Positions 10,356-27,840 of a DNA stretch of 52,086 nt are shown here, piece by piece. The first letter of the stretch is position 1. Each line of letters begins with the position of its first letter. The notes under the pieces were generated by a model that was given only the letters and a program-made list of their open reading frames with translations, was not told where the DNA came from and did not search any database. The DNA is from Gemmatimonadota bacterium (lineage in GTDB: Bacteria; Gemmatimonadota; Gemmatimonadetes; JACCXV01; JAHWKZ01): positions 1 to 52,086 of the forward strand of contig JAICQP010000002.1 in NCBI GenBank assembly GCA_025937815.1. Direction: 5' to 3'. Both the position numbers and the translations under genes were made by a program.

Positions 10356-10409
10356 GGGTTCGAGAGAATACCGCCAGTACCGGTACCGGCAAGTCCGACC
10401 GGCGTTCTA

Positions 10410-11564
10410 CTACGTCCTTCCCTCGAGGGAGGCGAGCCAGGCCGCGTTCAATGCCGTAAGGGAGCGGTACTGCGGTCGTGGCGATAGCCATTCTCTGCGC
10501 AGCGCCTCCACATCGACCCATGCTGGGTCGAGGCCGCGGCCGTTCCAAGCTTGCGCGAACGCACGGGTCTCCCGCCCACCGTGCAGCTCGTCGAAGACGG
10601 CCTTTGTCGTGCGCTGGACGATTTGCGGAGGCAGGACGTCCCCGAAGTGGAGCTCCATGGCGGCGGCCCGACTCGGGAATCCTCCTCGGGGCGCGGATTC
10701 TCCCAGGACCCGGATGAATCCCGGATTGAAGAACGGCTGTATCAGCGACACTTCTTCGTCCCGGGCCAGGGCCGCGAAGATGGCTTGGGTCAGCTCGTAG
10801 TTCCGTGATTCCGGGACCTGCTGGATCGACTCCACCCAGCTAGCGCCGCGTTGTCGCCGGAGGAGGGCGCGGTATTTCCGTTCCAGCTCGCGCCTCGCGA
10901 CCGAGCGCAACCACGGGAATTCCTCCCGGCGGCGGAGTCTCACGTAGACCCGAAGCCGTTCCGGGAGCAGGTTGAATGCTGCGCGCTTGACCGCCTTGCG
11001 TAAGGGGCGCCCATGAACGTCGAGCCTCTCCCGCGCTGCGTGACGTCTATAGGGTGAGAACACCTCGTCTCCACCCGTCCCGAATACGAGCACATGTCCA
11101 CGGGCGACCTGGAGCAGAGGCACGATACGGTGCGCGACGGGAGGCCAGAACAGACCGTGACGCCGGAGGACTTCGGCCGCTACAGGGCCTAGCGGATCCA
11201 GCTCTTCACCGATGGTGACGATCTCCCATCGGCGAAGACCGAGGTGGTCGATCGTTATTTTCTGCCAGTCGTTCTCGTTGGACCGCGGTCGGTTCTCGAA
11301 CCGCAGCGTGACGGGAACGGGATCGGACAGGCCGCGTTCCCGCGCGAGATGCGTGCCAAGACATAGAAGCGCTGCGGAGTCGCGCCCCCCCGAAAAGCCC
11401 ATGAAGCATGGATCGTTTTCCAGTGCCGGGACCAGCAGATCTTCCAATACGCCCCGGACGGTCGAGGACGCGAGGGGAGGACCTGAAGCGACACGGTACG
11501 AGTGCCGCTTCCCCAACACGATGCCGGAACAGATCTCGAGGGGTTCGAGCGGCGGAAGTGCCAT
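10410..11564 (-). CDS. asparagine-synthetase-like PP-loop ATP-pyrophosphatase, C-terminal (adenylating) domain only; candidate RiPP-modifying enzyme
   Basis: SGGRDS PP-loop about 55 aa from the ATG at 11564, and a FGTGGDEVF motif as in the AsnB/lasso-cyclase synthetase domain. There is no N-terminal Ntn/glutaminase-type domain. The track start at 11735 is a GTG giving an R/S/A-rich extension that overlaps the precursor ORF, so I judge it unlikely. Confidence 0.7.
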   Translation of the reverse strand: MALPPLEPLEICSGIVLGKRHSYRVASGPPLASSTVRGVLEDLLVPALENDPCFMGFSGGRDSAALLCLGTHLARERGLSDPVPVTLRFENRPRSNENDWQKITIDHLGLRRWEIVTIGEELDPLGPVAAEVLRRHGLFWPPVAHRIVPLLQVARGHVLVFGTGGDEVFSPYRRHAARERLDVHGRPLRKAVKRAAFNLLPERLRVYVRLRRREEFPWLRSVARRELERKYRALLRRQRGASWVESIQQVPESRNYELTQAIFAALARDEEVSLIQPFFNPGFIRVLGESAPRGGFPSRAAAMELHFGDVLPPQIVQRTTKAVFDELHGGRETRAFAQAWNGRGLDPAWVDVEALRREWLSPRPQYRSLTALNAAWLASLEGRT

Positions 11565-11584
11565 CGGTTCCGCGAGGGGTCCCC

Positions 11585-11616
11585 AGCGGGCGCGCCCGGC
11601 GACGGACGCGCCCGCT
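11585..11616 (-). promoter_or_regulatory. 10-bp GC hairpin in the spacer between the precursor ORF and the enzyme gene
   Basis: agcgggcgcg-(12 nt)-cgcgcccgct is a perfect 10-bp stem with no clear U-tract. Its position (after the small ORF, before the enzyme) is typical of stoichiometry-setting attenuators in RiPP operons. That role is an inference. Confidence 0.4.
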
Positions 11617-11679
11617 GTTTCTAGGACGAAAGAGGGTTTGGATCGTCGAGCGATGGGCGAGATCGAGGTGACCCGAAGC

Positions 11680-11826
11680 TCAGCGGTCGATGACGCAGAG
11701 CGCGTCTTCGGTCCCGAAGTCGCCCTCCAGAGCACTGCAGTTGGGTGGCTCGCTGGTCCCCGCCGTCAACTCCTGCACGCTCCCGAGGAACTGAAGCTCT
11801 GGCGTTTGGTAAGGCTTCTTTTCCAT
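11680..11826 (-). CDS. 48-aa lasso-type RiPP precursor peptide candidate (not in supplied ORF track)
   Basis: ATG at 11826 is preceded by AGGAGG; TGA ends at 11680. Translation: MEKKPYQTPELQFLGSVQELTAGTSEPPNCSALEGDFGTEDALCVIDR. The leader fits YxxPxLxxxGxxxxxT with Y-17/P-14/L-12/G-8/T-2 relative to Gly23. About 80% of third codon positions are G/C, like the neighbouring genes. Confidence 0.65.
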   Translation of the reverse strand: MEKKPYQTPELQFLGSVQELTAGTSEPPNCSALEGDFGTEDALCVIDR

Positions 11827-12016
11827 GACCCTCCTGGGTTTTCGCTCGATCATCCACTCGACCGCTGGAGCATACTACGCGACTGGTCAGGATTTCAGTA
11901 TACCCGAACGGTCACCTAGCTTCGGTCAGGGGCGGTATGGATTTTGGTTGATTTCATCGACTGGGATTCGGAGCTCTTTTGCCCGGTAGGGAAGCTGCGG
12001 CTAGACTCGATCGTCG

Positions 12017-12910
12017 ATGCGCCGCTCGCTCACGATCCGGGTCGTCCAGCACCGGCCGGTGCTCGGAGATCTGGCGGCCAACCTCGCCGACCACCGGGCC
12101 CGGGCGCGGGCGGCGGCCGAGGAGGGGGTGGACCTCGTCCTCTTCCCCGAGCTGTCGCTGACCGGCTACGGGCTCGGCGACCTGGTCGACGCGGTGGCGC
12201 TCGATCCGGCGCACCCGCTCTGGCCGGAGATGCTCGCCCTCTCCGAGGACGTCGACGTGGCGCTGGGGCTCGTGGAACGAGGCGACCAGGGCTACCTCTA
12301 CAACTCCTGCGCTTATCTCCACCGCGGGGAGCTCCTCCACTGCCACCGGAAGACGTACCTGCCGACCTACGGCGCGTTCGACGAGGGTCGCTTCTTCTCC
12401 CCTGGGCGGGCCATCGAGACGTTCGACGCTCCCTGGGGCCGCGCGGCGCTGGTGGTCTGCGAGGAGTCCTGGCACCCGGCGGTCGCGCACGGGGCCGCCA
12501 TGCAGGGGGCGGACGTCCTGCTCGTGATCTCGAACTCCCCGGGACGCAACCCGCGGGAGGGAGACTGGACGAGCCAGCGGGGCTGGCGCGCGAACCTCTC
12601 CGCCTACGCGCGCCTCTATGCGGTATGGGTCGCCTACGCCAATCGGGTGGGCTACGAGGAGGGGTTCGTCTTCGGCGGCGGCAGCGCGGTGATCGCGCCC
12701 GACGGCCGCGAGCTGCTCGTGGCGGACCCGCTCGAGCCCGAAGAGCTGACGGCGGTGCTCGATGCGGGAGAGCTTCGCCGCGCGCGGATCGCCAACCCGG
12801 CGCACGGGATCGAGCGCCACGAGATGCTGATCGAGGCGCTGGACCGGGCCGGCCGCCGCGAGCCCCGCGGAGCGCGCATGCCCGGCGAGCGCGAGGAAGC
12901 CCGCCCTTGA
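12017..12910 (+). CDS. carbon-nitrogen hydrolase (nitrilase-superfamily glutaminase module of NAD synthetase)
   Basis: Glu-Lys-Cys triad contexts LFPELSLTGY, HRKTYLP and LVVCEESW. It lies immediately upstream of, and overlaps, the NAD synthetase domain gene. Confidence 0.85.
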   Translation: MRRSLTIRVVQHRPVLGDLAANLADHRARARAAAEEGVDLVLFPELSLTGYGLGDLVDAVALDPAHPLWPEMLALSEDVDVALGLVERGDQGYLYNSCAYLHRGELLHCHRKTYLPTYGAFDEGRFFSPGRAIETFDAPWGRAALVVCEESWHPAVAHGAAMQGADVLLVISNSPGRNPREGDWTSQRGWRANLSAYARLYAVWVAYANRVGYEEGFVFGGGSAVIAPDGRELLVADPLEPEELTAVLDAGELRRARIANPAHGIERHEMLIEALDRAGRREPRGARMPGEREEARP

Positions 12911-13749
12911 GCACGGCGACCGCCATCGACAGGGTTCCCCTCCTCGATGCCGACCTCGCCGTTCGCGCGCTGGCGCTGTCGCTCAGCCAGACGCTCGACG
13001 ACGCCGGCCGGAGCGGGTTCGTGGTCGGGCTTTCGGGCGGCGTGGACAGCGCGCTCGCCGCCGCCATCGCGGTCCGCGCGTCGGGCCCGGCTTCCGTGCA
13101 CGCCTTCCACTTGCCGGCCACGGAAAGTGCGACGGAAAGCGAGCGGATCGCGCGCGCGGTCGCTGAGCACCTCGGGATCGAGCTCGCGGTGGTCCCCCTC
13201 GCCGCCCTCGTCGACGGCGCCCCGCTGGCAGCGCCCGAGGCCGCGCGCCGCGGCAACTTCGCCGCTCGGATGCGAATGGCGATCCTCTACGACCGGGCCG
13301 CCGCCCTCGACGCGCTCGTCCTCGGCACGAGCAACAAGAGCGAGATCGCGCTGGGGTACACGACGCTATGGGGCGACATGGCGGCGGACTGCTGGCCGCT
13401 CGGCGACCTGTACAAGACCCAGGTCCTCGATCTCGCGCGCGCGGTCGGGCTGCCGGGCGCCGTGGTCGAGCGCCCACCGTCCGCCGAGCTCTGGGACGGG
13501 CAGACGGACGAAGGCGAGCTGGGGTTCACCTACGGTCAGGCGGATCTCGTCCTGTGCGCTTACCTTGAAGGCAGGCGCCGGCCGGAGGAGATCGCCGGCC
13601 CGGGGATCGACGGGGACACGGTCGCGCGCGTCCTGGACCGCGTGCGGCGGAATGCGTTCAAGCGCCGCCTGCCGTGGATTCCCAAATTGACCACGCGAAC
13701 CGTGGGTCACGATTTCCTGCATCCGCGCGCGTGGCGCGGGCCGGCCTGA
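12907..13749 (+). CDS. nadE: NAD+ synthetase (synthetase/PP-loop domain)
   Basis: PP-loop GLSGGVDSAL, then LVLGTSNKSEIALGYTTLWGDMA and PLGDLYKTQV. The only plausible start is TTG at 12907, overlapping the nitrilase stop (TTGA). The upstream part of track ORF 11944.. is R/G/P-rich read-through. Confidence 0.85.
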   Translation: MSTATAIDRVPLLDADLAVRALALSLSQTLDDAGRSGFVVGLSGGVDSALAAAIAVRASGPASVHAFHLPATESATESERIARAVAEHLGIELAVVPLAALVDGAPLAAPEAARRGNFAARMRMAILYDRAAALDALVLGTSNKSEIALGYTTLWGDMAADCWPLGDLYKTQVLDLARAVGLPGAVVERPPSAELWDGQTDEGELGFTYGQADLVLCAYLEGRRRPEEIAGPGIDGDTVARVLDRVRRNAFKRRLPWIPKLTTRTVGHDFLHPRAWRGPA

Positions 13750-13783
13750 TCGGCCACGGAACCTCGAGGGGGGAGGGGATCTG

Positions 13784-14173
13784 ATGGACACCATGACCTG
13801 GGCCACGATCGCGCTGTGGATCATCGCGTCGTTCTTCCTGGTCCTGACGCTGGTGATGCTCTTCGTCGGCATACCGGTCGCGCTGGACGTCAAGCGCACA
13901 ATCCGGCGAGTTCAGGGGACGATCGACGAGGTGCGAGTAAAGGCGGACCCGATCCTGTTCAAGGCCCAGGAGGTGGCGAGCGACATCCAGGAGATGACCG
14001 CCACCGCCCGCCGGGAGGCCGAGCGGGTGGGCGCGTCGATCGAGAACGTGAGTGGCAGGGTCGACGATTTCGCGGCGCTGATGGAAGTCGTGCAGGAACA
14101 GGTCGAGCGGCCGCTCTTGCGCTCCGTGGCGGCCCTGACGACGGCCCGCAAGACGATCTCGAGGTTCTTCTAG
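13784..14173 (+). CDS. DUF948-like membrane-anchored stress protein
   Basis: 129 aa. One N-terminal TM helix followed by long helical repeats (IDEVRVKADPIL...). Paired with a YtxH-like gene as in Gram-positive general stress loci. Confidence 0.55.
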   Translation: MDTMTWATIALWIIASFFLVLTLVMLFVGIPVALDVKRTIRRVQGTIDEVRVKADPILFKAQEVASDIQEMTATARREAERVGASIENVSGRVDDFAALMEVVQEQVERPLLRSVAALTTARKTISRFF

Positions 14174-14174
14174 C

Positions 14175-14594
14175 ATGAATGCCGAATTCGAAGCGGAAGC
14201 CGAATCGGACGGCGACACCGGAGGAGATACGATGGCTGCACGGGATGCCGGGCTGGCGGATTTCATGATCGCGTTCTCGCTCGGCGCGCTCTTCGGCGCC
14301 GGGATGGCGCTCTTCATCGCGCCCCAGTCCGGGGAGCAAACGCGCAAGGAGCTGGGCAAGAAGTCGAAGAAGTGGAAGAAGCAGGCCGGTAAGAAGCTCG
14401 ACGAGGCCAGCGAGACCCTGAAGGAAACCGGCGGCGACTGGCTGGAGGATGCCGAAGGGATAGTGGAAGACTGGTCGTCGGGGATCGCCGAGATCGTCGA
14501 GGAGGGCATCCAGTCGATCCGCAGCGCCGTGCAGGACGAGATCGAGAAGGTCGAGAAGCGGATCGGAAAGAAGAAGAAGGGGCTGTTCCGCTAG
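14175..14594 (+). CDS. YtxH-like general stress protein
   Basis: 139 aa. GALFGAGMALFIAPQSGEQTRKEL matches the YtxH signature. K/E-rich helical tail. The start is 1 nt after the upstream stop. Confidence 0.65.
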   Translation: MNAEFEAEAESDGDTGGDTMAARDAGLADFMIAFSLGALFGAGMALFIAPQSGEQTRKELGKKSKKWKKQAGKKLDEASETLKETGGDWLEDAEGIVEDWSSGIAEIVEEGIQSIRSAVQDEIEKVEKRIGKKKKGLFR

Positions 14595-19385: not shown

Positions 19386-19892
19386 TCAGTCGATGGGGCT
19401 GCCCTGATTGTGCACCATGATCCAGCGGCCATCCCGCCGCACGAAGACCTTGACGAGCCGGTTGCGCCGTTGCGGCTCCCCCTCGCGCCCGAGCGTGAGG
19501 ACGAACGAGAGAATCGCCGTGTCGCCGTAGATGCGAACCTCGATATCCGAAGGGGACAGGCGATCGGCCATACTGGCGGAGGCGAACCCGGCCAGCGCCT
19601 CGTCCTTGTCCGAAACCTCGCCGCGCGCGTTGACGCGCACGTAGTCCTCCGCGAGATAGGAGGCATAGGATTCCAGGTCGCGCTGATCGAGCAGATCGAT
19701 CAGGTGGTATTCGAGGGCTGCGATCTCGGCCATCGCTGCCGAATCGCCGTCTGCGCGGACGACGGTCTGGGCCGTTAGCGGCGTACCGGCGAGCGCGAGG
19801 AGGACAATGACCATGCAGAACCTCGCAATCATGCCTTGATTCCTTTCGTTCGTGGTTTGCGCTTCGAGGAACCGCGCGATCCCGTTCGCCAT
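19386..19892 (-). CDS. SnoaL/DUF4440-like (NTF2-fold) secreted protein
   Basis: Signal peptide MIARFCMVIVLLALAGTPLTAQ, and a C-terminal VFVRRDGRWIMVHNQ typical of the NTF2-like fold. The start is either ATG 19892 (ATGA overlap with the cyclase stop) or ATG 19832. The stop is 1 nt before the gatB ATG. Confidence 0.5.
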   Translation of the reverse strand: MANGIARFLEAQTTNERNQGMIARFCMVIVLLALAGTPLTAQTVVRADGDSAAMAEIAALEYHLIDLLDQRDLESYASYLAEDYVRVNARGEVSDKDEALAGFASASMADRLSPSDIEVRIYGDTAILSFVLTLGREGEPQRRNRLVKVFVRRDGRWIMVHNQGSPID

Positions 19893-21916
19893 CAGAGCCG
19901 CATCCGGCGCACGAGGGAATCGAACCGCGGATCGGACCGGAGTTCGTCGAGACGTGGATCGACCTTCAGGTAGACCATGCGGGGGGAGCGCTTCGCATAG
20001 GCCTCTTCCAGCAAAGCGAAGGCGCGCTCGGTATCTCCCAGACCGGCATGGATCACCGCAACGTCGTAGCTGGTCTGGTCCCCCATCGCCTCCAGCCTGC
20101 GCGCGACGTCGAGCGCCTCGCGCTCGTGACCGAGCTCGGCGTATACGAAGCCGACGAAGCCCATCAGAAAGGCATCAGACCCCCGTTCCGCGATCGCCCG
20201 TTCGCACTGGACGAGGGCCTCCGCGTTCCTTCCCTGGAGCTGATAGGCCCGCGCCAGGAAGCCGTGATATCCGGACATCCTCCCGGCCATCGCCTCCAAT
20301 GCCCTGCCCGGATCGCGCGCGAACAGGTAATGCCAGCCGAGATGCGAGCGGATCGCATCGTCGTATGGGGAGATCTCGAGAGCGCGCAGGCTTTCATCCA
20401 GCGACTCCCGTGTTCGGCCCATGGCCGTCAGGTAGTGCGAATAGGCGTGCGCCGCCTCGGCATTGCGCGGATCGAGCTCCACCGCTCGCTCGAACGCTCG
20501 ACCGGCGGCCTCCCAATCCCAGTCCTGGTTGAAGAGCAGATTGGCGAGGGATTTGTGCGCCTCGGACAGCTGGGGATCGAGCCCCAGCGACCTCTGTATC
20601 GCCGCCCTTTGCTTCTCGAGAGTCTCCGCCGCTGTCCGGAAGCCGCGGATCCTGAGCGACTCGTAGGAGTCCGCCAGACCGGTGTAGGCGACCGCATACG
20701 TCGTGTCGGCGCGGATGGCGGCCTCGAAGAGTTCGATACCCCTCATCGTCGACTCATAGGTGCGCTGGCTCCAGAAGAACCGGCCTTGCAGGTAGAGCCG
20801 GTACGCTTCCGGGTCGCCGGTGCGTCGGGGCACGATCCGGCCGGACGTCACCAGCTCGGGCTCCAGCTCGGCGACGATGGCGCGCGCGATCTCCTCCTGG
20901 ATCGCGAAGACGTCGGCCATTTCGCGATCGTACGTCTCGGACCACAGGTGGTAGCCGTCGTCCACGTCGATCAGCTGCGCGGTGATCCGCAGGCGACCGC
21001 CGGCTACCCGGACGCTCCCCTCCATCACCGTACCGACCCCGAGCCTGCGACCGATGTCCCGTACATCGAGATTCTTCCCCTTGTAGGCGAAGGCGGAAGT
21101 GCGGGAAACGACATCGAGCCCTTCGATTCGCGTCAGCGCGTTGATGAGCTCTTCCGTCATGCCGTCGCCGAAGTACTCCTGGTCTCCGCCGGGGCTGAGA
21201 TCGGCGAAGGGGAGGACCGCGATCGAAGAAGCCGCTTCGGCGGACGTCGGACCCTTCCATTCGCGACTCGAGAGCCACCAGCCGACGGCGACGACACCCA
21301 CCGCGACCGCGCCGGCGAGCGCGACCCTGCGTCCGCGCCCGGAATGGCGCGGCTTCTCGTCCGACTCCACAGGCTCCCCATGGGCCTCCTCGGGTGCTCT
21401 TCCCACGGAGTAGATCTGGACCGGCTCCTCCAGGCCCGGGAGCGTCCGCTCGCCGAGCGCCTGACACTCGTAGCCGCTCCGCTGCCGGATCTGGCGCCAT
21501 ACGTCCTCGCTGACGACGACCTGACCCGGCTCGGCCTCGTCCTGGATCCGCGCGGCCGTGTTCACGCCGTCTCCATACACGTCTCCGTCGGGCTCGGAGA
21601 CGACCTCCCCGAGGTGGATCCCGATCCGCAGGTTCGCGTCCCTGCCTGCCAACGCGGCGCGGCTCTCGAACACCCCGCGGACGTCGAGCCCCGCCCGAAC
21701 GGCCGCGTCGGCGCTCGGGAAGATGGCCATTCCCCCGTCGCCCAGGAACTTTACGACCGTTCCTCCTCGCTCCCGGACGACCTTCCTCGTGATCGACTGG
21801 AAGGTCTCCTTCAGCTTGAGCGCCGCATCCTCGTCGCGGGACGCCAGGGCGGTGAAGCCGACGATGTCGGCGAACCAGACCGCCGCGAGCCGCCGCTCTC
21901 TCGCCTTCACGCTCAC
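19892..21916 (-). CDS. class III adenylate/guanylate cyclase fused to a TM segment, TolB-N-like periplasmic domain and TPR repeats
   Basis: Cyclase catalytic motifs [17 protein letters not shown] and [13 protein letters not shown] segment [17 protein letters not shown]. Then [10 protein letters not shown]...[11 protein letters not shown] (TolB-like). The C-terminal third has TPR-like repeats. GTG at 21916 overlaps the gatA stop (GTGA). Confidence 0.8.
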
Positions 21917-23370
21917 GCCGACGGCGCCTCCCGTTCGAGGAACCGCGCGATCTCGAACAGGCGCCGCTCGGCGAAGTCCGGCCCCATGAGCTGGATCCCG
22001 ATCGGAAGCGCCGGACGATCCGGACGCGCGGGCGTTCTCCCCCACGGCAGCGAGATCGCTGGGATCCCGGCCAGGTTCGCGCTCACCGTGTAGATGTCGT
22101 TCAGGTACATGGCGAGTGGGTCCTCGGCTTTCTCGCCGATCGGGAACGCGGGCGTGGGGGTCGTAGGCGTCAGGATCGCGTCCACCCGCTCGAACGCCGC
22201 CTCGAAATCGGCCCGGATCCGCGCCCGGACCGCCGTTCCCTTTCCGTAGAACGCATCGTAGTAGCCGGCCGACAGCACGTACGTGCCGAGCATGATCCGC
22301 CGCTTGAGCTCCGCGCCGAACGCGGCCCGGGTCTTCAGGTACATCGACGACAACTCGCTCGACTGGGCGCGGAGCCCGTACCGAACGCCGTCGTAGCGGG
22401 CGAGGTTCGAGGAGGCCTCGGCGATGGCGACCGTGTAGTAGACTGCGATGCCGTACGGAGAGTGGGGCAGCGACACCTCGACGATCTCCGCTCCCGCCTC
22501 CGCCAACCGGTCGCGCGCGGCCTCGCAAGCGGCGAGGATGGCCGGGTCCAACCCTTCGCCGAAGTACTCGGCGGGCCAGCCGATCCGGATGCCGGCGGGG
22601 TCGGTGTCGTCGAGTCCCGCGCTCAGATCGCCGACCGGCTCCGGCGCGGACGTCGCGTCATGGGGATCGGAGCCCGCGATGACGGAGAGGGCGAGCGCGG
22701 CGTCCTCGACGGTCGTGCCCACGGTCCCGATCTGGTCCAGGCTGGACCCGAACGCGACCAGCCCGTAGCGGGAGACTCGCCCGTACGTGGGCTTGACCCC
22801 GACGGTTCCGCAGAAGGCGGCCGGCTGACGCACCGAGCCTCCCGTTTCGCTCCCCAGCGCCACCGGCACGCAGCCGGTCGCCACCGCCACGACGGATCCC
22901 CCCGACGAGCCTCCCGGCACCCGGGTCGGGTCGTGCGGGTTCCGCGACGGGCCGAACGCGGAGTTCTCGGTGGAGGAGCCCATCGCGAACTCGTCCAGGT
23001 TCGTCTTCCCGATCACGATCGCGCCGGCTTCGCGCAGCCGGGCGATCGCGGTCGCGTCGAAGGGCGAGACGTAGGGCTCGAGGAGGCGCGAGCCGCAGGT
23101 CGTCGGCCCGCCGGCGACCGCGATGTTGTCCTTTACCGCGACCGGCACGCCCGCGAGCGGCAGCGCGCTTCCGTCCCCGGCGGCAATCCGCCGGTCGACC
23201 TCGGCGGCCTCCCTCCGGGCGCGCTCCTCGCGCAGCGACAGGAACGCGTGCAGGTCCTCGATCTCGGTCGCTCGCTCGAGGGCTGTCTCGATGGCGTTCG
23301 CCGCGCTCGTCTCCCCCGCGCGCACGGTCCGGGCCAGGGCTACCGCGGTTCGCGGATGACCCGGACTCAC
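21913..23370 (-). CDS. gatA: Asp-tRNA(Asn)/Glu-tRNA(Gln) amidotransferase subunit A
   Basis: Amidase signature [12 protein letters not shown]...[12 protein letters not shown] and VAVKDNI. GTG at 23370 overlaps the gatC stop (GTGA). Upstream track codons are read-through. Confidence 0.95.
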
Positions 23371-23645
23371 TCGATCACCCGCGGAACGCGGAAGAACCCC
23401 GCTTCGAAATCGGGAGCCGCTTCGTGGAGCGGGACCACGTCCGGCCACTCGGCGAGCGTGTCCTCGCGCAGCGGCTGGTCGGGCCTTTCCGGCTCGGCGG
23501 CCGATCCGGCCTCGAGCTCCTCCAGCTTCTCGACATACGCGAGGATCGTCGACAGCTCGCGCCGGAACTGCTCGACTTCCTCGTCGGTCAGCTCCAGGCG
23601 GGCCAGTCGTGCGATGTGGCGGACGTCTTCCGGAGATACGGTCAC
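23367..23645 (-). CDS. gatC: Asp-tRNA(Asn)/Glu-tRNA(Gln) amidotransferase subunit C
   Basis: 92 aa. [16 protein letters not shown]...ILAYVEKL is the GatC pattern, and it lies immediately upstream of gatA. Confidence 0.9.
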
Positions 23646-23773
23646 GGAGCGGGAAGATAGAGGCCGGCGCCCCGGCGCGCAGGGCGGCCAGAACCCGATA
23701 CACTCCGGTCACACAATCGGAGTATCTTGAAGTCCCGATCGTGCCCGGAACCGTCCACCGGCGGAGAGATTTC

Positions 23774-25354
23774 ATGCAGGACAGGCGCTCCGCTCCCCCC
23801 GACCTCTCCCCGGGCTTTCCCCTGCGGGTCGGCGTCGTCGACATGGGCTCCAACGCGATCCGGTTCGTGATCGCGGATTTCATCGCGCCCACTACATGGA
23901 CCCCGCTGGTCAGCGAGCGGATACCCGTCCGGCTCGCCGATCGCGCATCGGAGACCGGCCTCCTGTCCGAGGAGGCGATGGATGCGGCCGTGGCCGTCAT
24001 GGCGCGATTCCGGGACGCCCTGGCGGAGCGGGACGTCCGGCACTACCGGGCGGTCGCGACGAGCGCGGTCAGGGAGAGCGGGAATCGGCGCGCGCTGGTA
24101 AAGAGGGTGCGGGAGCGAACGGGTCTCCGGCTGGAGGTGATCTCCGGCGCCGAGGAGGCACGCCTCGTGCACCAGGCCGCACGGGTCCGGGTTCCTCTGG
24201 GGAACAGGCCCTGGCTGATGGCCGATCTGGGCGGCGGCAGCCTCGAGATCGCGATCGTCGACGGCGAGGGGATCAAGACCCTGGAGTCGTTCGCCATCGG
24301 CACGGTCCGCCTGCTGGAGGAGTTCCGCAGCGAAACCGCCGGGGCGGATAGAATCAGGAGGCTCCTCGACGAATACGTCGCAGGACTCCGATTCGACTCC
24401 TTCGGGGCACGTCCAGAGGTAGCGGGATACATCGCGACCGGCGGCAACATCGACGACCTTGCCCGCGTGGCGGGCGCCAGCCCCGACGATGACGGAGTCT
24501 ACCTCCTGGACCTGGGCGACCTGAAGAAGGCGATCGAGACGCTGAACGAAATGTCGGTCGAAGAGCGAATCGAGGAGTTCGAGCTCCGCGAGAACCGCGC
24601 CGACGTGATCGTGCCGGCGGCGATGATCTATGCGCGGCTCGCCGAGCGCTTCGGAGTCTCCCGGATCCATGTCCCCAACGTGGGCGTCAAAGAGGGCGCG
24701 ATGATCGACCTGGTCGACGTCGTCACGGGTGGCGAAGGACACGGAAGACGGCGCGCGCGCGAGGTCGTGGCCGGAGCCGTGGCGCTGGGCCGCCGCTTTC
24801 ATTTCGAGGAGCAGCACGGTGTCCACGTGGCCCGCCTCTCGGAGCTCCTGTTCGACGCTCTCGCGGACGACCATCACCTCGACGAGAGGGATCGCGAGAT
24901 CCTCGTCGCCGCGGCGATCCTCCACGACATAGGCCAGCGGATCGCCTACAAGCGCCATCACAAGCACTCCTACTACCTGATATCGGAATCGGAGCTTCCC
25001 GGCCTCGACCTGGACGAAGTCGAGCTCGTCGCCAACGTCGCCCGCTACCACCGGCGCGCCGACCCCTCCACGAAGCACCCTCCCTACGAGGCGCTGTCCG
25101 AGGAGGATCAGGAGCGCGTCACCAGGCTCTCGGCTATCCTGCGGGTCGCCGACGCCTTCGACCGGGAGCACGTCCAGAACGTCCGCGACATCGCGATCCA
25201 GCTCGACGACGAGCACATGGAGATCGAGCTCGAGGGAGAAGGCGACTTCGAGCTCGAGCGCTGGGCGCTGGAGCGCAAGAAGGGGCTGTTCGAGAAGACA
25301 TTCGGTCTCGAGATCGTCCTCGCCAACGAGGCGGTGAGAAGTGATTTCCCCTGA
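23774..25354 (+). CDS. ppx: exopolyphosphatase / pppGpp phosphohydrolase (Ppx/GppA family) with C-terminal HD domain
   Basis: ASKHA-fold motifs [15 protein letters not shown] and [12 protein letters not shown] region ILHDIG...[12 protein letters not shown] at 23774. Confidence 0.88.
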
Positions 25355-25364
25355 GGGCCACGAC

Positions 25365-26099
25365 ATGCCGGGTCGCCTGATCGCCGTCGAAGGTGTGGAC
25401 GGCTCGGGCAAGTCGACGCAGATCGACCTGCTGCACAAGTGGCTCGTCGGACTGGGGTGCCGCGTCTTCTTCAGCGAGTGGAACTCCAGCCCGCTGGTCA
25501 TGGAAGCCACGAAAAAGGCCAAGCGCCGGCTGCTCCTGACCCCCACGACCTTCTGCCTCATCCACGCGACGGACTTCGCCGACCGCTACGAGCGGCAGAT
25601 CCTGCCCATGCTGAGGGCGGGCTACATCGTCCTCTGCGACCGGTACGTCTACACATCCTACGCGCGCGACAAGGCGCGGGGCTGCGACCCGGCCTGGCTG
25701 CGCGAGGTCTACGGCTTCGCCCAGCCTCCGGACATCACATTCTGGTATCACGTTCCGGTGGAAACCGCGCTGGACCGGCTGACGAAGTCCCGCAAAGAGC
25801 CCAACTACTTCGAGGCCGGAATGGATCTCGGCCTCTCGCTGGATCTTCGCGAGGGCTTCCGGATCTTCCAGGACCGCATCACGCGCAACTACGCCGAGAT
25901 GGTGGAGGAGTTCGGGTTCGTGACCATGGATGCCACGCTCCCCATCCACCACCAGCAGCAGGCCGCTCGCAAGCTCATCCAGGAGCGCATCGACCTGAGC
26001 GCATATCCGTCCCGCATCGAGCGCGTGGTGCACGACCAGTACGGCATCCCGCCGCCCGTCTTCGAGGAGGACCTGATCGACGCCGAGGGCGAGTGGTGA
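25365..26099 (+). CDS. thymidylate-kinase-like P-loop kinase, paralogue 1 (canonical Walker A)
   Basis: VEGVDGSGKSTQ and LCDRYVYTSYARD (DRY). It lacks the REPG motif of true Tmk. ATG at 25365 has GAGGG 8 nt upstream; GTG at 25341 is an alternative that overlaps the ppx end. Confidence 0.75.
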   Translation: MPGRLIAVEGVDGSGKSTQIDLLHKWLVGLGCRVFFSEWNSSPLVMEATKKAKRRLLLTPTTFCLIHATDFADRYERQILPMLRAGYIVLCDRYVYTSYARDKARGCDPAWLREVYGFAQPPDITFWYHVPVETALDRLTKSRKEPNYFEAGMDLGLSLDLREGFRIFQDRITRNYAEMVEEFGFVTMDATLPIHHQQQAARKLIQERIDLSAYPSRIERVVHDQYGIPPPVFEEDLIDAEGEW

Positions 26100-26137
26100 G
26101 CCACCGGACGTACCGCCACACGATCCCCGGCATCGAC

Positions 26138-26803
26138 ATGGAGGAGCTGAGCGGCCTGCTCATCGTCGTCGAAGGACCGGACTCGTCCGGGCGCTCGACC
26201 CAGATCTGGCTCCTGTCGCGCTGGCTCGAGCAGCTGGGGTTCGCCGTCGAGCAGATGGGCCTCAAGCGCAGCAAGCTCGTGGCCAACGAGCTCGAGCAGG
26301 CCAAGAACGGCAACGTGATGAGCCCGCGCACGATGGCGCTCTTCTACGCGACCGATTTCTACGACCAGCTCGAGAACCGCATCCTTCCCGCGCTGCGCGC
26401 CGGTTCCGTCGTGCTCGCCGACCGCTACATCTACACGCTCATGGCGAGGGACATGGTGCGGGGCGCCCCGTTCGAGTGGCTCGAGCCGCTGTATTCGATG
26501 GCGGTCGTCCCGGACGCCGTGTACCTGCTCGACACCTCGGCCGAGAACATCCTCGACCGCACCCTCTCGTCCCGCGGTGAGCTCGACTACTGGGAGTCCG
26601 GCATGGACCTGGGCCTTGCGCGGGACTGGTACCGGAGCTTCATGGTGTACCAGGAGGCCATGCGCGGGCAGTTCGAGCCGCTGATGTCCCGTTTCTCGAT
26701 CGACCGCGTCGACGGCGACCGCTCGATTCTGGACATCCACGAAGACCTGAAGTCCAGGATCGACCGGATCCTCACCGGATACGCGAACCCCCGTCAGGAC
26801 TAG
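26138..26803 (+). CDS. thymidylate-kinase-like protein, paralogue 2 (Walker A Lys replaced by Arg)
   Basis: VEGPDSSGRSTQ and LADRYIYTLMARD. It shares the paralogue-specific motifs ATDF..., ILPxLRAG and Y[FW]E[AS]GMDLGL with the upstream gene. The start is ATG 26138 or GTG 26096 (GTGA overlap with the upstream stop). Confidence 0.7.
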   Translation: MEELSGLLIVVEGPDSSGRSTQIWLLSRWLEQLGFAVEQMGLKRSKLVANELEQAKNGNVMSPRTMALFYATDFYDQLENRILPALRAGSVVLADRYIYTLMARDMVRGAPFEWLEPLYSMAVVPDAVYLLDTSAENILDRTLSSRGELDYWESGMDLGLARDWYRSFMVYQEAMRGQFEPLMSRFSIDRVDGDRSILDIHEDLKSRIDRILTGYANPRQD

Positions 26804-26805
26804 TG

Positions 26806-26834
26806 CGTCCCCGCCTCGGGGACGATTTGACTTT
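26806..26834 (+). terminator. intrinsic-terminator-like hairpin after the second Tmk-like gene
   Basis: cgtccccg-cct-cggggacg (8-bp stem, 3-nt loop) starts 3 nt after the TAG and is followed by ATTTGACTTT. Confidence 0.55.
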
Positions 26835-26907
26835 CGGTCGCCGGAAATCGATCCTCTGAGGCTCCCAGGACCACACTCGGACCACTCGATCCCCGAGGAT
26901 CAAGCGC

Positions 26908-27840
26908 ATGAAGCGAGATGACCGATCGCCGGGCCGCGGGGCAGCGGCGACCGCTGACACGCGATCCGAGAACGAGCGCCCCAGGAAGGAAGGGAAGGAG
27001 AAGGGAAAGAAGGACAAGAAGACGGACGAGCCGCGGACCCGGATCCGGAACAAGGTCTACGAACGCGAGCTCGCACGCCTCCAGCTCGAGCTCGCCAAGC
27101 TGCAGGAGTGGATCCGGCACGAAGGCCTGAGGGTGGTGGTCATCTTCGAGGGGCGGGACACGGCCGGCAAGGGCGGAGTGATCAAGCGGATCGTGGAACG
27201 GCTCAACCCCCGTGTTGTCCGCGTCGTCGCGCTACCGGCGCCGACCAAGCGGGAGCGGTCACAGTGGTACTTCCAGCGCTACGCCGCCCACCTCCCCGCA
27301 GCCGGTGAGATGACCCTCTTCGATCGCAGCTGGTACAACCGCGCCGGGGTCGAGCGCGTGATGGGATACTGCACCGAGGATGAGTACCAGGAGTTCCTGC
27401 GCGCCTGCCCAGAGTTCGAGCAGATGCTCATTCGCGACGGAATCATCCTGATCAAGTACTGGTTCTCGGTGAGCGAGGAGGAGCAGGAGAAGCGCTTCCA
27501 GGCGCGGATGAACGATCCCTTGAAGCGCTGGAAGCTCAGTCCCATGGATCTCGAAGCGAGGTCCAAGTGGCTGGAGTACTCGCGGGCCAAGGACGAGATG
27601 TTCCTCCACACCGACATCCCGCAGGCGCCTTGGTACGTCGTGAACGCCGACGTCAAGAAGCACGCCCGGCTCAACTGCATCGCGCACCTGTTGAAGCAGA
27701 TCCCGTACGAGGACCTGACGGCCATCCCCAAGACGGATCTGCCGCCCCGGCCGAAGGCCAAGAAAAAGAAGAAGTACGAGCGGACCCCGTTCGAGGAACA
27801 GACGCTGGTCCCGGAAGTGTACGGGCCGGACAGCCAGTAG
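26908..27840 (+). CDS. ppk2: polyphosphate kinase 2 (single-domain PPK2) with Lys-rich N-terminal extension
   Basis: FEGRDTAGKGG Walker-A-like motif, DRSWYNRAGVERV, and WKLSPMD...W lid region. The N-terminal roughly 45 aa are highly basic (KEGKEKGKKDKK). ATG at 26908 is preceded by GAGGA. Confidence 0.9.
   Translation: MKRDDRSPGRGAAATADTRSENERPRKEGKEKGKKDKKTDEPRTRIRNKVYERELARLQLELAKLQEWIRHEGLRVVVIFEGRDTAGKGGVIKRIVERLNPRVVRVVALPAPTKRERSQWYFQRYAAHLPAAGEMTLFDRSWYNRAGVERVMGYCTEDEYQEFLRACPEFEQMLIRDGIILIKYWFSVSEEEQEKRFQARMNDPLKRWKLSPMDLEARSKWLEYSRAKDEMFLHTDIPQAPWYVVNADVKKHARLNCIAHLLKQIPYEDLTAIPKTDLPPRPKAKKKKKYERTPFEEQTLVPEVYGPDSQ

Follow-up and report, generated by a model that had tools for sequence, protein, structure and literature searches.

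A conserved lasso-type precursor and a short AsnB-superfamily enzyme form a plausible two-gene peptide-modification system in Gemmatimonadota

Introduction

The closest described systems to the locus reported here are the split-B lasso-peptide clusters, such as those of fusilassin and lariatin, which comprise a precursor (A), a PqqD-like recognition element (RRE) protein (B1), a transglutaminase-like protease (B2) and an AsnB-like cyclase (C). The locus lies in a 52,086-nt stretch (hereafter the window) of contig JAICQP010000002.1 from a Gemmatimonadota bacterium (GenBank assembly GCA_025937815.1), where the gene for a 48-aa precursor peptide is paired with that for a 384-aa enzyme of the AsnB superfamily. 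It shares with the split-B clusters a YxxPxLxxxGxxxxxT leader (Thr at -2), a core that starts with a small residue, and a gene for an ATP-dependent AsnB-superfamily enzyme beside the precursor; relatives of the short enzyme, moreover, sit with B1 and B2 genes that match the NCBIfam lasso B1 and B2 models. Peptide and enzyme form a conserved unit under purifying selection at a fixed chromosomal site. A minimal two-gene system for a peptide made on the ribosome and modified after translation (RiPP), as was proposed in an earlier note made from the letters of this DNA, is plausible.

Lasso cyclases are hard to handle, and a family of homologues consisting of the synthetase domain only would show what the N-terminal domain is not needed for. 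No lasso cyclase structure has been solved (PMC11420955, PMC13352647), and none was found among the PDB matches of the window enzyme. The window clade represents a natural experiment of a second kind, having kept the leader and the enzyme and dropped the B proteins and the canonical acceptor, which means that leader processing acts in trans between loci, or else that new chemistry has been gained by the enzyme. Searches of an incomplete literature library for short or truncated lasso cyclases, orphan precursor–cyclase pairs and Gemmatimonadota lasso peptides found nothing relevant; the short lasso-cyclase family is large, and undescribed in the literature searched.

A conserved precursor–enzyme pair

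The precursor gene, which carries no annotation, runs on the minus strand from an ATG at 11826 to a TGA at 11680 and encodes MEKKPYQTPELQFLGSVQELTAGTSEPPNCSALEGDFGTEDALCVIDR. It is preceded by an AGGAGG ribosome-binding site and has a G/C fraction at third codon positions (GC3) of 0.80. Its product scores 19.6 bits (E 6.7e-4) against the NCBIfam model NF033521 (lasso_leader_L3), above the cutoff of 19, with lasso_cyano being the second profile matched. The predicted cleavage site divides the peptide into a leader, MEKKPYQTPELQFLGSVQELTA, and a core, GTSEPPNCSALEGDFGTEDALCVIDR. The former places Y, P, L, G and T at -17, -14, -12, -8 and -2, respectively, and by its sequence is a bona fide lasso leader. 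Core residues 7, 8 and 9 are Asn, Cys and Ser, with no Asp or Glu in the window core at any of these positions, where the canonical ring acceptor would lie. The precursor, its leader signature and the missing ring acid had all been described in the earlier note, and all three descriptions hold. The core also contains two Cys residues, Cys8 and Cys22.

The same arrangement is repeated across a Gemmatimonadota clade. CN_hydrolase and NAD_synthase genes, a 47–49-aa peptide, the short enzyme and clpB follow one another in a fixed order in at least eight loci (the window, L001, L002, L110, L117, L118 and the contigs of P0040 and P0022). The closest homologues of the enzyme are 77–99% identical to it, and the named close homologues, at 66–76% identity, are from Gemmatimonadota metagenome-assembled genomes (MAGs). 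The peptide open reading frame (ORF) was found upstream of the enzyme in every locus of the clade having DNA or gene calls, and in every clade locus examined it was intact, rather than absent or disrupted beside the enzyme's orthologues. In L118, two tandem precursor genes (604–753 and 966–1109), with the differing cores VNGLPTNGSVCEDFATVVDNVCEITPP and LVGPPTNCSVVADQSSEDALCEFPS, stand ahead of a single enzyme.

Thirteen clade precursors were gathered, five by peptide homology search and the others recovered from the loci by regular expression. They share the leader pattern MEKKxY[EQ]xPxLxxLGSVxELT. In an alignment of 21 precursors from the Gemmatimonadota clade, its sister clade and Solirubrobacterales, invariance extends to Y, P, G, V, L and T of the leader and to three positions of the core: one Ser (S9), one Asp (D14) and the C-terminal Cys. 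Asp14 is the sole acid to be invariant in all three groups. Conservation inside the clade alone extends to the first Cys and to a second Asp, three residues ahead of the C-terminal Cys (D-x-x-C). Position 7 is Asn in 10 of the 13 clade cores, two have Glu at position 7 or 8, and none contains Lys.

The enzyme has a dN/dS of 0.19–0.38 at a dS of about 0.8–1.1, and the 22 codons of the leader show a pN of 0.14–0.26 against a pS of 0.47–0.90. Recurrence of the peptide ORF ahead of the enzyme throughout the clade, and the marked deficit of non-synonymous against synonymous changes in its leader, identify it as more than a chance ORF. Looking for co-occurrence in related genomes had been suggested as a check on the locus, and the outcome is that peptide and short enzyme are paired across the clade and evolve together under purifying selection.

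This selection bears directly on the possibility, raised in the earlier note, that the pair is a decaying remnant of a lasso cluster, from which B1, B2 and the kinase were deleted and in which the ring acceptor was mutated, leaving both genes without function. The preponderance of Asn over Glu at position 7 could be read as such decay, as could the complete clusters of the sister clade and the GC3 of the enzyme (0.74), which lies below the 0.87–0.92 of the neighbouring clpB, nitrilase, thioredoxin and PLPC genes. However, decay is very unlikely, since both genes are under purifying selection, all of the family-invariant catalytic residues are kept in the window enzyme, and synteny is fixed in the eight or more loci. 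The intact ORFs, the duplicated precursor of L118, and a ribosome-binding site and operon-like signals that are still in place argue in the same direction. The lower GC3 of the pair would be compatible with either horizontal acquisition or weaker codon selection.

The short enzyme and its family

Profile searches, also suggested as a check, found the Asn_synthase domain (PF00733) in the enzyme at 44.6 bits and left the lasso/macrolactam cyclase model (NF033561) far below its cutoff, at 16.5 bits against 300, in an alignment that begins at profile position 323. The AsnB model TIGR01536 gave 17.4 bits against a cutoff of 267.1. As this alignment begins at position 257 of 517, the N-terminal domain of about 200 aa is absent, in agreement with the earlier description of an AsnB-type adenylating enzyme lacking it. 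Profile comparison detected no N-terminal-nucleophile (Ntn) glutaminase domain, and the NCBIfam and Pfam profiles gave no RRE/PqqD match in the enzyme. No curated NCBIfam model claims the short-enzyme family, for which the top matches are at 16–17 bits against cutoffs of 267–300.

An AlphaFold2 model of the enzyme has a mean predicted local distance difference test (pLDDT) score of 87.9. In fold it comes closest to the synthetase domains of TsnB9 (the best match), beta-lactam synthetase, human ASNS and carbapenam synthetase, with a Foldseek probability of 1.00, a TM-score of about 0.4–0.5 normalised to the query, and a sequence identity of 13–16%. The clade carries seven specific substitutions in the enzyme, all of them mild, which ruled out a clade-specific change of the active site.

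The phrase ‘N-terminally truncated’ in the earlier note might suggest a local deletion, which is not what the family shows: the short architecture is its normal form. Homology search with the enzyme retrieved 95 proteins, 345–430 aa long when complete, and a profile search of 1.84 billion representatives extended this to at least 1,074 50%-identity clusters at E<=1e-30, nearly all of 380–420 aa. The short family is defined here by a length of about 380–420 aa, a PP-loop near residue 58, an N-terminal L-x-P-L-E-x-x-x-G motif and full-length profile alignment. The window enzyme falls within this definition and scores 551 bits against the local family hidden Markov model (HMM).

Loci of relatives were collected by a pattern scan for FSGGRDS over genome and metagenome contigs, which recovered mostly distant relatives and one close one (L030), and other close relatives were added individually from the contigs that encode them; the counts taken over these loci are among the matches listed. 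A lasso-leader peptide lay nearby for 80 of the 80 enzymes that could be paired, the window enzyme included. This co-occurrence ruled out an ordinary metabolic AsnB/NadE-like amidotransferase that happens to stand beside nadE and a fortuitous small ORF, a reading which draws on the public annotation (‘asparagine synthase’) and the adjoining nitrilase/NAD-synthase pair, and to which we attach almost no credence. It is countered further by the 17 bits against TIGR01536, where the cutoff is 267, by the missing glutaminase domain, and by a peptide ORF that is conserved and under selection.

HMMs for B1, B2 and the kinase were built from the relatives' own proteins (23+ relatives for B2). In nearly all adequately flanked Actinomycetota and metagenome loci these three genes adjoin the short enzyme, and relatives down to 34% identity are the sole AsnB-like gene in clusters with B1 (PqqD), B2 (Transglut_core3) and an HprK-like kinase. 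A Micromonospora cluster encodes a precursor, an ABC transporter, a short enzyme of 385 aa as its only AsnB-like gene, a PqqD protein, a Transglut_core3 protein and a 276-aa P-loop protein. The Transglut_core3 protein scores above the cutoff of the lasso B2 model, the PqqD protein matches NCBIfam lasso PqqD models below their cutoffs, and the P-loop protein has a weak likeness to TIGR04352 (HprK_rel_A), while the core, GGFPGVTDADG..., presents the canonical Gly1–Asp8 pair. Natural fusions join the short enzyme to Transglut_core3 (B2) in P0172, to a sulfotransferase in P0125 and P0195, and to NTP_transf_5 in P0200. Because cluster context, pairing with lasso leaders and domain fusions all point the same way, a large set of lasso-type clusters has the short family as its macrolactam synthetase.

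Outside the window clade, the cores in the relatives' loci L005–L109 (for example L047, L056, L061, L015, L040, L036 and L071) fall into two groups. The first has an acid at positions 7–9 and G, A, S or Q at position 1. In the second, a conserved Asp is preceded by a Lys exactly 6, sometimes 7, residues earlier, and the spacing from the Thr-2 site varies. Of the 71 unique cores, 42 contain K-x5-D, compared with 3.4 +/- 1.7 in shuffles. Clustering at 45% identity gave 21 canonical-only clusters, 17 Lys-only, nine with both features and one with neither, so that 47 of 48 have an acid at 7–9 or a Lys 6–7 residues before Asp; the window core has neither. Such a family-wide pattern suggests rings that may be closed through the Lys side chain, or trimming that would make Lys residue 1. 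No report of either was found in the incomplete literature library searched, and the word ‘lysine’ is absent from a 2026 review of interlocked peptides.

Two side observations concern the wider family. Forty of the 71 family cores, from loci L003–L109, end in Ser, and their clusters hold an HprK-like P-loop protein, a combination that would predict C-terminally phosphorylated products in soil Actinomycetota. Tandem short-enzyme paralogues occur within one cluster in L008, L013, L014, L074, L100 and L101; these may form heterodimers, or may serve two precursors, each with its own enzyme.

Missing partners and the sister clade

The earlier note had reported no B1 or B2 gene near the pair, and this is borne out by the relatives' HMMs, which detected none of B1, B2 and the kinase in the 52-kb window (best B2 E = 0.7). 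Neither these three nor a transporter was found near the pair in any clade locus examined, including the gene tables of L001, L110, L117 and L118. Ten large ORFs checked beyond 19.9 kb of the window are housekeeping genes. Whether by loss or from the outset, the window clade is without these partners in cis.

The nearest outgroup of the enzyme, at 46–48% identity, is a sister clade with similar leaders (MKKPYEAPKVFELGTVKQLTE) and cores such as TTTEEDKCSGSGD...C, whose loci carry a lasso-leader precursor, B2, PqqD, an ABC transporter and a kinase-like gene. The P0050 contig of this clade encodes B2, PqqD, a 45-aa ORF, two phosphodiesterase-family proteins, a sulfatase, a 635-aa GATase+Asn_synthase protein, a GerE regulator, the short enzyme, a 65-aa ORF and an ABC transporter; a single cluster here holds both a full-length and a short AsnB-like enzyme. 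In L116 (809–5130), a contig of a Gemmatimonadota MAG, B2, PqqD and two phosphodiesterase genes are ordered as in the P0050 contig, the first four genes being common to both, and complete sister-type clusters therefore occur in Gemmatimonadota. Profile search for B2 found one Gemmatimonadota example, P0280 (GCA_036556305.1). The B1 and B2 proteins of a sister cluster could in principle process the orphan precursor in trans.

A proposed mechanism and its rivals

For these data we propose, with the scales about evenly poised, that the locus is a functional two-gene RiPP module, derived from lasso-type clusters with an enzyme of about 385 aa, in which the leader is removed in trans and a large lactam is formed at Asp14. 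The enzyme would adenylate the beta-carboxylate of Asp14 with ATP and then couple it to an amine. Asp14 is proposed as the adenylated acid because it is the sole acid conserved across clades and because the enzyme is homologous to proteins of the AsnB fold. The amine would be the alpha-amine of Gly1, released by a pair of leader peptidase and RRE whose genes lie outside the locus, plausibly that of a sister cluster with a very similar leader. Gly1 is favoured since the core offers neither Lys nor an acid at positions 7–9, and since Thr-2 and the RRE-binding motif are still invariant. The predicted product is a lactam of about 14 residues (11–15 in relatives), braced by a Cys8–Cys22 disulfide, and not a threaded lasso with a ring of 7–9 residues. 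The earlier note had offered either Glu12 or Asp14 as partner of Gly1; Asp14 stands as the invariant acid, and Glu12 was ruled out, being replaced by Ala in P0098 and by Pro in L030 and L117.

Several points weigh against this proposal. Across relatives, the spacing between residue 1 and the invariant Asp ranges from 11 to 15 residues (14 in the window), which is unusual for a precisely sized ring, and we know of no precedent for a lasso cyclase making a ring of 14 residues. The 52 kb of the window, and relatives' flanks of 17 kb, 13 kb and about 10 kb, yielded no B1 or B2. The Gemmatimonadota B2 and the orphan pair have been seen in different assemblies, the three clade MAGs identified (GCA_035513155.1, GCA_035687725.1 and GCA_035698105.1) being other than that of P0280. 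The cyclase and B protein of MccJ25 are mutually dependent (PMC11420955), and partners that are loosely linked are not guaranteed to work. The assignments of acceptor and nucleophile, finally, derive from conservation only.

A different reading, which we consider possible but on the unlikely side, is that the short enzyme stands alone and is independent of B proteins, itself reading the leader and modifying the uncleaved precursor, with Asp14 captured by a non-amine or external nucleophile. The thiol of Cys8 would then give a thiolactone, and ammonia or a small amine a side-chain amide. B1, B2 and the kinase are missing in cis at all of the eight or more clade loci, as this reading expects, and the variable distance between residue 1 and Asp suits a reaction that does not involve the N-terminus. 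AsnB-fold enzymes join carboxylates to varied N-nucleophiles, with TsnB9 the top structural match here. A Cys lies six residues before Asp in 8 of the 13 clade cores, the register occupied by Lys in the K-x5-D cores of relatives, but this spacing breaks in divergent members (+2, +4, +5, +7 and +9), for which reason a thiolactone in that register was set aside as the main model and kept as a rival. In known systems Thr-2 and the YxxP motif make contact with B2 and B1; both are nonetheless invariant here, the enzyme has no RRE/PqqD match, and to our knowledge no AsnB-type enzyme forms thioesters on peptides.

A more specific form of self-sufficiency, which we regard as rather improbable, would have the enzyme of about 385 aa read a lasso leader with neither RRE nor protease and install a non-lasso cross-link on Asp14, for example a Cys8–Asp14 thiolactone or a 14-residue head-to-side-chain lactam. 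If true, the pair would constitute a new RiPP subclass, evolved from lasso clusters by the shedding of B1 and B2.

Features and surroundings of the locus

The features of the locus are collected in Table 1. The 115-nt spacer between peptide and enzyme has a minimum free energy (MFE) of -52.8 kcal/mol (z = -3.2), a value that none of 200 shuffles equals. Both the spacer and its hairpin had been noted before; the hairpin, given then as 10 bp at 11585–11616, is corrected to a 15-bp stem at 11584–11617. The stem-loop has no U-tract and was not scored as an intrinsic terminator by the scan made. It is a possible attenuator or stability element, and the ratio of peptide to enzyme expression would probably be set by it.

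Table 1. Coordinates of the precursor–enzyme pair and associated elements in the window
Feature	Position	Strand	Basis
Precursor peptide gene, 48 aa	11680..11826	minus	ORF and translation, NF033521 match, 13 homologous precursors
Leader, residues 1-22	11761-11826	minus	
Predicted core, residues 23-48	11683-11760	minus	
Codon of core Asp14 (precursor residue 36), predicted adenylation site	11719..11721	minus	Invariant alignment column D36; acceptor role inferred
Precursor stop codon	11680-11682	minus	
AGGAGG ribosome-binding site, 5' of peptide ATG	11830..11835	minus	Read from sequence
GC-rich stem-loop, 15-bp stem, in peptide–enzyme spacer	11584..11617	minus	MFE structure
Short AsnB-superfamily (PP-loop) enzyme, 384 aa	10410..11564	minus	PF00733, family profile, AlphaFold2 model
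SGGRDS PP-loop, residues 58-63, ATP pyrophosphatase motif	11376..11393	minus	S58, G59, G60, D62 and S63 invariant in both family alignments
TGGDE motif, residues 163-167	11064..11078	minus	G162, G165 and D166 invariant in family alignment
Terminator-like hairpin and T-rich tail, just past enzyme stop, ahead of clpB	10371..10392	minus	Consensus scan, pattern match only

Two observations were made on the surrounding genes. In the L001 locus, whose enzyme is 74% identical, clpB and the glyoxalase gene are separated by two further genes (12114–14488) that are not in the window, one encoding 367 aa with no family match and the other 424 aa with weak beta-propeller matches. Positions 19892–27840 of the window encode an adenylate/guanylate cyclase–tetratricopeptide repeat protein, a Ppx/GppA-HD protein, a thymidylate kinase and PPK2, genes of signalling and polyphosphate metabolism that are unrelated to the pair.

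Comparison with known systems

Beside the split-B lasso clusters, from which its leader signature, small first core residue and adjacent AsnB-superfamily gene are familiar, and which it would resemble in its mode of action, the window system lacks four lasso features: an acid at core positions 7–9, B1 (PF05402) in cis, B2 (PF13471) in cis, and the cyclase N-terminal domain. Cyclases of those clusters are 500–650 aa long and carry that domain, whereas the window enzyme has 384 aa without it; McjC, for comparison, has 513 aa (PMC11420955). No B1, B2 or transporter gene is present in the 52 kb, and the invariant Asp lies at position 14, with no Asp or Glu at 7–9.

Phosphorylated lasso clusters, of the paeninodin type or Haft's HprK-related kinase A/PqqD_rel_X, resemble the wider short family more than the window clade. 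The wider family co-occurs with the 276-aa P-loop protein that is weakly like TIGR04352, many of its cores end in Ser (the 40 of 71 given above), and some of its members are fused to a sulfotransferase or NTP_transf_5. The window clade, in contrast, lacks a kinase, and Ser is not the last residue of its cores.

The third comparison is with the synthetases of the AsnB superfamily, namely asparagine synthetase B, beta-lactam synthetase, carbapenam synthetase and TsnB9, with which the window enzyme shares the SGGxDS PP-loop and the overall fold. It differs from them in having no Ntn-glutaminase domain, in its low identity of 13–16%, and in its substrate, which is presumably a ribosomal peptide. 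By homology to this superfamily, its chemistry would be the adenylation of a carboxylate followed by the formation of an amide.

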